Made by a program: the position numbers. This document shows positions 36,001 to 39,000 of a DNA stretch of 64,000 bases, piece after piece; position 1 is the stretch's first letter, and each line of letters begins with the position of its first letter. The DNA comes from Candidatus Latescibacterota bacterium (GTDB taxonomy: Bacteria > Latescibacterota > CBDEFO01): contig OZ252149.1 in the NCBI GenBank assembly GCA_965248755.1, positions 2,816,001-2,880,000 on the forward strand. Direction: 5' to 3'.

Positions 36001-39000
36001 ACAGACGGAGTCCCTGGCGAACCGACTTCTGGAACTATCCATAGCGACTCGCCAAAAAGATCTCGATCAGACCGCAGATTTCTTTGCAGATTCATTATCA
36101 GCTACCCCTCTTCCGACTGAACCCGAGGAACTTGTGCATCAAGTCAAGTGGATCCACAAGCACGGCTGGAAGATTCAAAAGGAGGCTTTGAGGTTGTCTT
36201 TGAGCGCTTTTTTGAAGGATTGGGGGGTGTTTTTGAACACTTCTCTGAGATTGATGACGCTCGGTTCAAGGTGGTGAAAGCTAAGTTTGACGACAGGGGC
36301 GCTCAGGCCCGCGTCTATTTCTATCTGGTGGGCAGGGACGCTGAGGGCCTAAGAGAGTGGGCAAGGGGATATGCCTCTGTACATGCACAGGCTTCGGAGG
36401 AGGGCAACTGGAAAATCAGCCAGTTCGTACTCGAGAGTCTTGAATCCCTGGTGTCCACCATTGAGCTCTTTTCCGAAGTGGGTGGTCCGGCAGGTGTTGC
36501 GGCCTTCTTCCCGGCCTATGGATCGAGCCAAAACCGGGGTTTCGTCTGGCACGGGGCAGCGGTAGCGGACGTGGACCTGGATGGGTTGATGGACATCTTT
36601 GCGACCGGTATCTTCGAGAACTATCTCTATTTAAACGAGGGCAACGGGCGCTTCCGCGACGCTTCTGCTCAAACGCAGACCAAGATTTTGCCCAAAGCCA
36701 CGACCCCGCTCTTTTTGGATTATGACAACGATGGGGATCAGGACCTGTTCCTCTCCTCGCCACAAAATCAGATGTTGCTTGAAAACCGGCTCATACCGGA
36801 AGGGAAGCTCGAATTTTTCGACGTGTCGTTGCAGTCAGGGATCGGGCTTGTTCCGGCAATAGGGTTCAGCGCCATCGCCGGTGACGTCAATGGGGACGGC
36901 CGTCCGGACATCTACGTTTCGTCTTACAACAGGTACGGCCAGGTGATGCCGAATTCGTGGCATCGCGCCACCAACGGGACTCCAAATCTGTTGTTCATAA
37001 ATAAGGGCAAGGGCGAATTTGTGGAGTCTGCAAAGGAATGGGCTGTAGATGACGGCCGTTGGAGTTACGCCGCTGGATTTGTGGACATAGACGAAGACGG
37101 GGATATGGACATCTACGTTGCCAACGATTTCGGCGAAAATGGTCTCTACTTAAACCAAGGTGATCGCTTTGTCGATGTGGCGGCTTCTTGGGGAGTGCTG
37201 GACCCGGGAAATGGCATGGGGGTCTCTTTCGGTGACTACGACAACGATGGGGACCTGGACCTCCACGTGACCAATATGTCCTCGACGGCGGGAAATCGGA
37301 TTCTCGGGAGACTCTTTCCCAGTGTGAGCCGGGAGATTGGCGTCCTGGGTAAGCTGGCTTCGGGAAACAGCCTCTATGAAAATCTGGGGAACGGCCAGTT
37401 CAAGGACGTTACATCGGCCGTTGGGGGATTTTCATCGGGCTGGGCGTGGGGCGGTGGATTCATCGACTTCGACAACGACGGATGGGAGGACATCTATACC
37501 CCCAACGGGTTCATTTCGGGAAAGTCGATGAAGGACACGTGAAGCCTCTTCTGGCGCCACGTGGTGGCGTCTAAGGCAGGAGTTGAGCAGGCGGGCAGCG
37601 ACACTTTCACAGAGCGGCAAAACAAATTGTTCGGACAGGGGTTTTCATTCAGCGGCTTCGAGAGAGATGCACTCTACCTCAACCTGGGCAGCAAGAAATA
37701 CTTGAATATCTCCGGCGTCTCAGGCATAGATTCGATCACCGATGGAAGGGGAGCTGTCTTCGCCGATTTCGACAACGATGGCGACACAGACATCTTTTTG
37801 ACCACTATCCAGGGAGAGGCTCACCTGCTCTTTAGAAATAATCTTTCCGAAGATGACTCCTTCATTCGTGTCACCTTGGAGGGCGTAAAGAGCGGGAAAG
37901 ACGCCTTCGGAAGCCTGGTGAGAGTCAAGACCTCCGCCGGCGTCCTCACCAAAGTCAAATCCGGTGGAGCCGCGTACCTCTCCCAGAGCGACCCGCGACT
38001 TACCTTCGGTCTCGGCTCAGATGCTAAAGCCGAGTGGGTCGAGGTTGTGTGGGCTTCAGGCCTGGTGCAGAAATTTGAGAATATCCCACAAGGCTCTTCC
38101 ATGAAGATTACCGAAGGAGATGAGCAGGTGCGATGGGTTGAGGAGAAACGATTCCAGCTGCCCGAGCCTATCAGGCCACAAGAGACCCGCCTGATGTCCT
38201 TGAGGATCAAAAAGGGGGGACAGTTTCCGAATCTTGCGCTGTCTTTATTGGATGGCGAAAGGACTTCCCTGCAAAGTTCTTCGATACTTTTGGATGATCC
38301 CATACCCGGACGAAAATACCTTGTGAATCTGTGGGCAACGTGGTGCCTGCCATGCGCCAAAGAGATGCCGGAGTTGCAGAAACTCTATGCTCGCAACATC
38401 GATAGTCTTGAGATTATGGGTATCAGCCTGGACCACGAACGGGCACAAGACAAGGTCAAGAGCTTTTTGAGCGATCACGGTATCCAATACCCGATCTATC
38501 TAAGCGATAAGAACATAATCGAGCAAATCTATGCCACAGACGAGGTCTTCGTCCCCCTCTCTTTTCTCCTCGACCAGAGCGGCAAAGTAATGGAGATCTT
38601 CTCAGGATGGTCTGAGGAGGTCAGGGAGAGATTGATTGAACAAGTAGACAGCAAACAGTAGACAGGGGCACCCATCTCCGCTCCCTATGTGCTCTTTATT
38701 AGGGGAGATAGGTATGCCCTGTATCCTGTCAATGTTTTGAGGTGTCGGTAATGTCAGACTCGGCGGAAAAGACATATCGGGAGCTTTTGGAGAGGCTCAG
38801 GAGGTTAAGAATCAGGGAGATGAATCTCGGGGTCTCCTTCGGGACAGCTTTGTGTCTTCTGGTTGCCCTTTGTATCGGGTCGCTCTGGATGGCCGTAGAG
38901 ATCTTGTTCTATCTGCATCCAGTGGCAAAGATGCTTATGCTGTCTCTTACTGCCGGGACTGCGGGCTCTGCCTTTGTGTACTTCTCCATCTTCCAAGTCT

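Follow-up and report, generated by a model that had tools for sequence, protein, structure and literature searches.

A predicted exported CRTAC1-like selenoprotein with a C-terminal thioredoxin-like domain in a Latescibacterota bacterium

The window (the whole stretch of 64,000 nucleotides of a Candidatus Latescibacterota genome that was analysed) very probably carries, judging from its sequence, a single gene with a selenocysteine (Sec) codon at positions 35888-38661. The elements of recoding are all present, and we infer that Sec is incorporated at the UGA at 37540-37542. The gene would encode a protein of 924 residues, about 100 kDa, made up of, in this order, a signal peptide, an N-terminal α/β domain, a CRTAC1-like FG-GAP β-propeller, an UnbV_ASPIC domain, and, at the C-terminal end, a thioredoxin domain of the TlpA/ResA type whose motif is WCLPC.

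Gene structure and domain order

The features of the locus, in window positions, are the following.

35888..38661, + strand: whole gene, predicted exported CRTAC1-like selenoprotein; 924 codons with the missing C counted
35888..35962, + strand: signal-peptide-like N-terminal stretch, MMSFKHLLFFFLSLLLA..., judged by eye and not with a cleavage-site tool
36237..36238, + strand: assembly indel, one C absent between these bases; seen in the alignment with sister locus L024 and in contigs of runs X1, X3, X5, and X6
36469..37900, + strand: FG-GAP β-propeller, CRTAC1-like, from six FG-GAP_3 stretches and the sister model; boundaries approximate, blades on both sides of the TGA
37513..37656, + strand: helical insert of the propeller, model residues 543-590, in which Sec lies in the opening turn of a helix (551-563); pLDDT 48-68, placement tentative
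37540..37542, + strand: TGA predicted to be read as Sec, residue 552 of the full protein, from frame and conservation
37553..37571, + strand: SECIS-like in-frame hairpin; 8-bp stem, GUG loop, 18 nt from UGA to loop, -12.0 kcal/mol
37903..38097, + strand: UnbV_ASPIC domain (P0001 residues 586-650, E 8.9e-15)
38215..38613, + strand: TlpA/ResA-like thioredoxin-fold domain (Redoxin, P0001 690-822); ResA/TlpA models below their cut-offs, TM-score by target 0.76-0.81 with ResA 4nmu
38344..38355, + strand: CLPC motif inside WCLPC, coordinates computed from the frame

The TGA is the last codon of a forward-strand open reading frame (ORF) at 36148-37542, of which a 440-residue version starts at 36220. 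A second ORF on the same strand (37561-38661, 366 residues) follows in the same frame, six codons (S-L-F-W-R-H) past the TGA. The coordinates and the frame bear out the survey's finding that an in-frame TGA lies between an FG-GAP ORF and one with UnbV_ASPIC and thioredoxin-like domains, and that the read-through contains no further stop. A third ORF (35888-36277), with the signal peptide, is counted into the gene because the C behind position 36237 is missing from the window. This C was found by alignment with the sister locus of the same genus and is present in the Logan contigs of all four runs, in each of which the depth with the C equals the depth; the contigs of X1 and X3 differ from the window in no other letter. 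Since the indel hides the signal-peptide piece, the gene has 924 codons with Sec at codon 552. These values replace the length of 813 residues and the Sec position 441 proposed earlier, while the accompanying assignment to a CRTAC1/ASPIC-family selenoprotein that ends in a CxxC domain is supported. The sister version of the gene is a single frame of 924 amino acids with one TGA, and hydrophobic N-termini were seen by eye in all orthologs of the alignment. The apparent split into three ORFs is best explained by the UGA together with one base missing from the assembly.

A Pfam search of the read-through protein returned FG-GAP_3 in six stretches (PF13517, 143 bits), UnbV_ASPIC (PF07593, 54.8 bits), and Redoxin/AhpC-TSA. 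The first two scores lie above the respective cut-offs, giving the domain order of CRTAC1/ASPIC-UnbV proteins, FG-GAP repeats and then UnbV_ASPIC. The structure model used was that of the sister protein, which is 97 % identical (pLDDT 85). Murine CRTAC1 (9etn_A) was its first Foldseek match (TM-score by target 0.73, 605 aligned columns, E 5.7e-26), and both this match and the propeller blades run across the TGA. The relationship to murine CRTAC1, with its FG-GAP propeller and UnbV_ASPIC, is also seen with phmmer (E 1.7e-21); identity is 21 %, and the bacterial protein has in addition an N-terminal domain, the Sec-bearing helical insert, which was considered in the bacterial protein only, and the thioredoxin-like domain. 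In the model, Sec is tentatively placed at the first turn of a helix in the propeller insert. The WCLPC motif lies 266 residues past Sec, and its two cysteines are the only ones downstream of Sec, as are the CxxC cysteines in most orthologs.

The thioredoxin-like domain has the TlpA/ResA fold (ResA 4nmu, E 2.8e-16) and, like TlpA/ResA thiol-disulfide oxidoreductases, a motif of the W-C-x-P-C type, but here it forms the C-terminal domain of a 924-residue protein. None of the NCBIfam TlpA/ResA/DsbE models scored above its cut-off (best NF002854, 68.9 bits against 170, and NF047696, 63.2 against 230); because all scores fall far below the cut-offs, the domain is not an equivalog of any of these models. 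The only selenoprotein-specific NCBIfam model to give a score was NF041054 (WAxxUGC_long), which matched the thioredoxin domain with 24.3 bits, where the cut-off is 300.

Recoding elements

The hairpin consists of GGCGCCAC (37553-37560), the loop GTG (37561-37563), and GTGGCGTC (37564-37571), so that the apical loop is formed by what was taken as the GTG "start" codon of the second ORF. The distance of 13 nt between the T of the TGA and the first base of the hairpin, reported previously, is confirmed by the sequence. The bSECIS model given in section 5 of PMC13188914 has a loop of 3-9 nt with G in the first two loop positions, a stem of 4-16 bp, a spacing of 16-37 nt, and a minimum free energy (MFE) of at most -7.5. 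Among 73 distinct TGA loci, 62 passed all four constraints of the model as set out in that section, and the spacing between UGA and hairpin was 17-18 nt in 66.

In an alignment of 28 hairpin sequences, pairing holds in 95.9 % of the cells of the stem; slid partners reach 73 % at most, and the covariation score was reached by none of 500 shuffles. Stem pair 24-34, formed by the third base of the Arg codon and the first of the Ala codon, occurs as all four Watson-Crick types without being broken once (CG 20, UA 4, AU 2, GC 1, and one GU); it is the one covarying pair of seven, the others being invariant or varying on one side. Part of the stem conservation reflects protein constraint, because sense-codon forms, too, retain the peptide FWRHVV. 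The fold energy of the whole 111-nt region was no better than that of shuffled sequences (z = +1.0). Five Cys loci and two sense-codon loci served as control for the hairpin. Four of the five Cys-form loci have no hairpin of at least 4 bp at this place, where their mean MFE is -8.3 kcal/mol versus -15.6 kcal/mol in the TGA forms, and in the two sense-codon loci (Ser TCC and Glu GAG) the stem is interrupted, as judged by eye.

The genome encodes a tRNA-Sec (72 bits, anticodon tca), SelB (365.6 bits), SelA (546 bits), and SelD (365 bits). The SelD gene itself contains one TGA. SelA was found in 49 of the 50 TGA-form genomes of the same phylum, the exception (G043) being 80 % complete, and in all five TGA-form genomes of other groups.

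Conservation of the UGA and alternative readings of the gene

The survey had also considered the gene to be shared with many relatives, which holds: 78 distinct loci have TGA at the same aligned site, in the pattern [DEV]x-U-[SA]x[..]W[RQL], with the protein conserved on both sides. In the phylum of the window, one TGA is present in 55 of the 150 matches listed, from at least 50 of 168 genomes, and in all 19 of those listed at 61-100 % identity; the site was confirmed in every own-phylum locus that was fetched. Among 401 genomes sampled from the phylum to which locus L074 belongs, one TGA occurs in 45 of 47 matches at E<=1e-45, and it lies at the aligned site in all 30 loci fetched from there. 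Ten of the 79 loci fetched from JGI metagenomes are close relatives, and all ten have the TGA; a metagenome scan with an alignment of the sense-codon forms returned, among close relatives, TGA forms only. The TGA is further found in records titled Acidobacteria, Vicinamibacteria, Pyrinomonadaceae, Pirellulaceae, Phycisphaerae, and Akkermansiaceae. The alignment of cut pieces has 38 of 80 loci without a domain covering the TGA site, and these were left unscored. The tree of relatives was made with FastTree.

Cys takes the place of Sec in P0003 (961 residues, with CxxC), P0004, P0005, and the clade L053/L054/L061/L062. Of 35 sense-codon rows, 7 have Cys. The remaining rows have S (13), V (3), R (3), and E (2), with L, A, M, T, Q, D, and N occurring once each. 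Such mostly non-Cys replacement is unusual for a catalytic Sec. SelA is still present in both of the two genomes with sense forms.

These data bear on two readings in which no selenoprotein is made. The UGA could be read by a near-cognate tRNA, or be a regulated stop helped by the hairpin. The variety of residues tolerated at the site in sense-codon relatives would suit such readthrough, as would the fact that Sec is something we infer, but the regular presence of SelA in TGA-form genomes, the fit of hairpin loop and spacing to the SelB-type model in most loci, the occurrence of Cys forms at the same site, and the ending of this gene at an ordinary TGA stop in L028-L030 make this very unlikely. 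That the locus holds two or three genes rather than one, or a gene broken in recent times, with the FG-GAP protein ending at the TGA and a second protein starting at GTG 37561, is most improbable. The six codons between TGA and GTG are conserved as protein in the 78 loci, the GTG sits in the hairpin loop, and propeller blades lie on either side of the TGA; a nonsense mutation would not be expected to be kept at one site over more than 100 loci in several phyla. A split is nevertheless what gene callers and database entries give, and P0074, P0090, P0092, P0099, P0103, and P0109, which lack UnbV_ASPIC and align, with 78-98 % identity, to only 27 % of the query region, look as if cut at the TGA. 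The frameshift at 36237 in the window could also be cited for a broken gene, but in all four runs the contigs lack it.

A pseudogene was rejected on the conservation and on the absence of the frameshift from these contigs, and an alternative code with TGA as a sense codon on the ordinary stop in L028-L030.

A possible redox role and relation to known families

We know of no function for the bacterial members of the CRTAC1/ASPIC/UnbV family. That a conserved Sec is joined to a CxxC domain hints at extracytoplasmic redox chemistry. In the proposed mechanism, the UGA would be decoded as Sec by tRNA-Sec and SelB, directed by the in-frame hairpin at 37553-37571, and Sec552, at the start of the helix in the propeller insert, would act as an extracytoplasmic redox nucleophile. 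Oxidised Sec552, as a selenenic acid or selenenylsulfide, would be reduced by the fused CxxC domain. This domain would in turn be returned to its reduced state by a membrane protein of the CcdA/DsbD type, the gene for which lies in another part of the genome. A DsbD_TM gene is present at C1:934087-934713. A complex prediction based on P0003, a natural Cys form (6-row alignment), in which the propeller and ASPIC part was paired with the thioredoxin domain, gave no verdict (score 0.00) and counts neither for nor against the relay.

From the sequence comparisons, the chances of such a Sec-to-CxxC relay appear evenly balanced. Of the Sec rows, 67 of 79 have CxxC, as do 1 of 7 Cys rows and 4 of 28 rows with other residues, a distribution that speaks against a Sec independent of the fused domain. 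Such independence, with Sec as a lone catalytic or a metal- or metalloid-binding residue and a separate task for the thioredoxin-like domain, is nonetheless a real possibility, if one to which less than an even chance is given. It would account for the clades in which Sec occurs but a thioredoxin domain does not (the g43 clade, L044/L047, and L079), but each of these has another nearby or conserved Cys, namely, U-x-C in L044, L047, and L079 and one conserved Cys in "NEPLC" in the g43 clade. Members of the Cys clade L053-L062 have one Cys only and lack a thioredoxin domain, and four sense-codon forms retain CxxC with neither Sec nor Cys at the site: P0006 (V), P0008 (L), P0009 (S), and P0022 (Q). 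In the clade with TPR, on the other hand, the non-Sec members P0059, P0067, P0083, and P0114 also lack the first motif Cys, while the Sec member L042 keeps WCPPC. A phylogenetically paired test of Sec versus CxxC was not significant (five pairs on starred branches, median p 0.25) and is underpowered.

The relay can be extended to an extracytoplasmic selenoenzyme built on a CRTAC1-type propeller, with Sec on a helical insert, recycled by the fused TlpA-like CxxC domain, and with a chemistry in which Cys could not replace it. As a whole this proposal is rather unlikely. If true, it would explain why lineages that gave up the UGA have mostly ended with arbitrary residues at the site and without the thioredoxin domain rather than with Cys, and it would provide a first biochemical (redox) function for the large ASPIC/UnbV/CRTAC1 family.

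ASPIC/UnbV/FG-GAP proteins have been listed as "selenoprotein gene candidates" in S9 Table of Kim et al. (2016, PLoS One, PMC4807772), the main text of which mentions neither ASPIC nor FG-GAP. Like the present gene, these candidates belong to this domain family, and each is divided by an in-frame UGA into two annotated genes. According to S9 Table, three of the four are bSECISearch-positive, and their closest sense-codon match has Gly, which fits the variable site of the present family. The candidates stand in that supplementary table only, where position, alignment, discussion, and thioredoxin domain are not given; their UGA may or may not coincide with the present site. The survey's finding of a new selenoprotein family is, in view of S9 Table, too strong if taken as wholly new, but the CRTAC1/ASPIC family is missing from the 119 families in Table 1 of a 2026 catalogue (PMC13188914). 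Among the literature titles listed, nothing relevant joined selenoprotein or selenocysteine with FG-GAP, ASPIC, or CRTAC1.

Bacterial genes with an in-ORF SECIS read by SelB, of which E. coli fdhF is the archetype, resemble the present gene, by the consensus model quoted in section 5 of PMC13188914, in the short GC-rich hairpin 17-18 nt past the UGA, in a loop starting with G and then G or U, and in the presence of selA, selB, selC, and selD in the genome. The present gene differs in its host protein, a predicted exported β-propeller instead of an oxidoreductase from one of the known selenoprotein families. The thioredoxin-fold selenoproteins in Table 1 of the catalogue (the UGC-containing TlpA family and the Redoxin family with UxxC) are likewise exported redox proteins with Sec. 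In those families, Sec is inside the thioredoxin motif, whereas the motif of the present protein is CxxC and its predicted Sec stands about 265 residues upstream, in another domain. The catalogue, dominated by small thioredoxin-fold proteins, would gain a large exported host without that fold, as well as an unusual pattern of Sec loss in which many residues, and not Cys alone, take its place.

In the window, the gene is preceded by DUF4159 and followed by DUF4175, TPR, MoxR, and DUF58 genes. The orthologous loci L074 and L075 are flanked by genes unrelated to these, and no operon argument is possible for that reason.

Gene callers cut the family in two, as is seen from database entries and from a footnote of S9 Table in PMC4807772. 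The family is common, occurring in 44 of the 401 genomes sampled from one large phylum and in at least 50 of 168 of the phylum of the window. With the gene both split and this common, a family model would mend hundreds of annotations.

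Reading frame and extent of the gene

The CRTAC1/ASPIC-family gene is split by an in-frame TGA, read here as a predicted selenocysteine (Sec) codon. Two open reading frames (ORFs) had been reported to flank it in the same frame, with the sequence running on across the TGA, and this was confirmed: translation with the TGA as U meets no stop between 36148 and 38661 and contains a single U. The ORFs below are from the ORF listing of the window.

36148..37542, + strand: upstream ORF, closed by the TGA at 37540-37542
37561..38661, + strand: downstream ORF, same frame, six codons past the TGA
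35888..36277, + strand: N-terminal part of the gene, in another frame than the 36148 ORF
37553-37571, + strand: hairpin GGCGCCAC-GTG-GTGGCGTC, 10 nt past the TGA

The protein had been put at 813 residues with Sec at position 441, which had to be revised. All orthologs aligned extend further upstream, through a conserved domain (about 100 residues) to a hydrophobic N-terminus, and a DNA-level comparison with sister locus L024, from the same genus, revealed that the window is one C short at 36237/36238. Logan contigs from four public sequencing runs (X1, X3, X5, and X6) were aligned to 35850-38700. The extra C behind 36237 was present in the contigs of 4/4 runs, the depth with it being equal to the depth in each. 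X5 and X6 are from other studies and show many other differences from the window; X1 and X3 have 0 other letters differing from it over 35850-37555 and 37533-38700, TGA included. The latter two may represent the sample behind the assembly, which would make them relevant material for the question of an assembly error. With the C restored, the gene spans 35888..38661 and has 117 + 807 = 924 codons, Sec being codon 552; L024, in one single frame, likewise encodes 924 aa. One gene with one predicted selenocysteine codon and a SECIS inside its frame is very probably a real feature of this genome.

The SECIS-like hairpin

The loop of the hairpin is the GTG at which gene callers begin the second ORF. 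In 66 of 73 distinct loci, a simple perfect-stem search found a perfect hairpin at 17-18 nt from the UGA, and 62/73 satisfied the four bSECIS constraints given in the legend to Fig. 2 of a 2026 review (PMC13188914). The 11 failing loci have energies of -3.8 to -7.3 kcal/mol or a mismatch barred by the perfect-stem search. Loops among the 73 loci are GGUCG (17), CGUGC (15), GUG (10), GGUC (10), AGUUG (5), GUC (5), and others. In an ungapped alignment of 28 sequences in one register, 95.9 % of the cells were paired versus 30-73 % with the 3' arm slid, the covariation score was reached by 0/500 shuffles, and RNAalifold predicted the same stem. Pair 24-34, the only covarying one (three are invariant), is broken in none of the 28 sequences (CG 20, UA 4, AU 2, GC 1, GU 1). 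It pairs the wobble position of an Arg codon (CGN) with base 1 of the codon four positions later (GCG Ala, ACG Thr, UCG Ser, or CCG Pro), so that a synonymous change in the Arg codon is accompanied by a residue change in the other codon. In the other clades, the register of the stem is shifted by one to a few bases (GGCGCAC-GGUC-GUGCGCC; GGCUGU-CGUGUC-ACAGCC).

Part of the stem is explained by protein constraint, as the peptide FWRHVV is also kept in sense forms, and the wider 111 nt have an ordinary folding energy compared with shuffles (z = +1.0). The control for the hairpin is small, consisting of five Cys loci and the two sense-codon orthologs with available DNA. The four loci of the Cys-form clade (DY-C-TTFWTHD) lack a hairpin of at least 4 bp at this place, and the fifth, doubtful Cys locus has one of 6 bp; the mean MFE is -8.3 kcal/mol for the Cys loci versus -15.6 kcal/mol for 41 Sec loci. 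The stem is interrupted, as judged by eye, in the two sense-codon orthologs (Ser TCC, Glu GAG).

Distribution, replacement, and published precedent

The phylum of the window (168 genomes) was searched with 236 residues around the site. Among the 150 matches listed (153 more lie beyond), exactly one TGA is present in 55, a TAA in 1, and none in 94; the TGA is present in 19/19 of those listed at 61-100 % identity. All loci fetched from this phylum have it at the same aligned site, across several divergent clades (DT-U-SLFWRHV; D[TSL]-U-S[LF]FWRTVV; DL-U-SFFWRQVV; DG-U-[AS]C[IV]WQAVV). From a second phylum, that of locus L074, 401 genomes were sampled evenly; 46 of them contain a total of 47 matches at E<=1e-45. 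One TGA is present in 45/47, and it stands at the site in 30/30 fetched loci. Titles of TGA-form records name Acidobacteria, Vicinamibacteria, Pyrinomonadaceae, Pirellulaceae, Phycisphaerae, Akkermansiaceae, and an uncultured marine bacterium; one set behind these comprises 80 loci, 38 of which have no domain covering the site and were left unscored. Of 79 loci from JGI metagenomes, all 10 close ones have the TGA, and two of these are tandem paralogs on one contig (L158 and L160; DT-U-SDLW.. and DT-U-SDWW..); both have a hairpin of their own, and their CxxC variants are WCESC and WCDAC. In total, 78 distinct TGA loci were gathered.

In three orthologs (L028, L029, and L030), the terminal stop is TGA as well, so that one gene uses this codon in two ways, as a stop and, with a hairpin, as Sec. 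The ortholog L041 (G151:C9) keeps TGA and hairpin but goes out of frame about 59 codons on; its match, at 53 % identity, contains one TAA, which reflects either decay of this copy or an error in the assembly. A further in-frame TGA occurs in L186, a distant family member, where the surrounding sequence is different (..DC-U-IDFVEG..) and an 8-bp hairpin comes next; this TGA may be due to chance (alignment score 76, which is low).

A database search with residues 400-640 returned 6444 proteins at E<=1e-20, of which the best 120 were listed and 33 of these examined at the site. Six entries look as though they had been truncated at the TGA: they cover only 27 % of the query region, have 78-98 % identity, and contain no UnbV_ASPIC.

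Residue at the TGA site in close full-length forms (P-numbers, database proteins)
Cys: P0003 (with CxxC domain), P0004, P0005
Ser: P0002, P0009-13, P0015-17, P0067, P0083, P0114
Val: P0006
Arg: P0007, P0020, P0023
Leu: P0008
Ala: P0014
Glu: P0018
Thr: P0021
Gln: P0022
Asp: P0026
Asn: P0059

Sense forms are nested in Sec clades at several places of a 114-row FastTree tree built with the site masked (P0003, 99*; the P0011-17 group; P0059/67/83/114 beside L042, 98*), and at least 10 changes between U and non-U are needed. Because the method is quick and no root was placed, we infer the direction of these changes from the nesting. Close relatives within one sense clade vary at the site (V, L, S; R, E, S), which suggests that the position is free to vary once it is no longer Sec.

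The genome, one contig of 4.54 Mb, encodes a tRNA-Sec (72 bits; ARAGORN call tRNA-SeC, anticodon tca), SelB (365.6 bits), SelA (546 bits), and SelD (365 bits), all over the cut-offs. SelD is probably a selenoprotein itself, as its match (G000:C1:4363007-4363930, outside the window) contains one in-frame TGA. SelA was found in 131/168 genomes of the phylum, in 49/50 of its TGA-form genomes (the exception, G043, is 80 % complete), and in 5/5 carriers belonging to other groups. Both genomes with sense-codon forms have it (2/2), which argues that their UGA losses did not follow from loss of the machinery.

The survey's finding had proposed a new selenoprotein family, which holds in part. None of the 119 families in Table 1 of PMC13188914 is FG-GAP, ASPIC, or CRTAC1. 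FG-GAP, ASPIC, CRTAC, VCBS, UnbV, and integrin are absent from the main text and the one spreadsheet of the BSepDB paper (PMC13326102), and the main text and four supplements of deep-Sep (PMC12013277) likewise gave no match. The main text of Kim et al. (2016; PMC4807772) mentions neither ASPIC nor FG-GAP; its S9 Table contains ASPIC/UnbV/FG-GAP selenoprotein gene candidates, each annotated as two genes, with G as the homologous residue in the closest match and SECIS 'yes' in 3/4. The idea of a selenoprotein in this family is therefore already in print as a table entry. That table and main text do not give the site, the hairpin covariation, the distribution, the Cys/other replacements, or a link to the thioredoxin domain. 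The family is thus an uncatalogued one with a partial precedent in print.

Domains, a possible redox relay, and gene surroundings

Pfam recognizes FG-GAP_3 (six stretches), FG-GAP, UnbV_ASPIC, and a C-terminal Redoxin/AhpC-TSA/Thioredoxin_8 domain. NCBIfam gave only sub-threshold TlpA/ResA-type matches and no family model covering the whole protein. An AlphaFold2 model of the 924 residues of L024, made with a 30-row alignment, has a mean pLDDT of 85 and a pTM of 0.82; Sec552 is the second residue of helix 551-563, inside a stretch of low confidence (543-590; 48-68). Foldseek ranks murine CRTAC1 first (9etn_A; E 5.7e-26, TM-score by target 0.73), and the C-terminal domain matches ResA/TlpA-type structures (TM-score by target 0.73-0.81); sequence searches gave the same two matches. 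The database relative P0029 (705 aa) has the thioredoxin domain (WCIPC) and lacks the entire Sec-bearing insert and the adjoining blade (..GGGFIDFDNDGDLDVFSTT..), which reflects either natural loss of the site or a join made in gene calling.

After Sec, the window's protein and most orthologs have no Cys other than the two of the CxxC. A CxxC 200-330 residues past the site is present in 67/79 Sec rows, 1/7 Cys rows, and 4/28 other rows of the alignment; the 12 Sec rows without it include one broken copy and one interrupted by N. Where a Sec form lacks the thioredoxin domain, it has U-x-C (L044, L047, L079) or, in the g43 clade, one conserved Cys within 'NEPLC'. In a TPR-fused clade, WCPPC is kept in the Sec member and its first Cys is lost in four non-Sec members. 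A phylogenetically paired Sec/CxxC test had only 5 pairs on supported branches, with CxxC going the same way 3.3 times and the opposite way 0.1 times (median p 0.25). A DsbD_TM-type gene is present elsewhere in the genome, and its product could recharge the fused CxxC domain. On these observations, a Sec-CxxC redox relay would be the most likely mechanism, to which we give roughly an even chance.

35023-35727 and 38742-47601: gene cluster around the selenoprotein gene, with DUF4159 upstream and, downstream, DUF4175 (1126 aa), a 618-aa TPR protein, a 448-aa ORF, a MoxR AAA+ (AAA_3) ATPase, and DUF58/VWA

The make-up of this cluster presumably resembles that of Bat/aerotolerance-type MoxR clusters. 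These neighbours are not kept beside the orthologous loci L074 and L075, which have others, so the selenoprotein gene stands alone. A second large TPR + FG-GAP (+ UnbV_ASPIC) gene lies at most a few kb from the selenoprotein gene in both of these loci (L074:1120-4527, - strand; L075:9965-12709, + strand).
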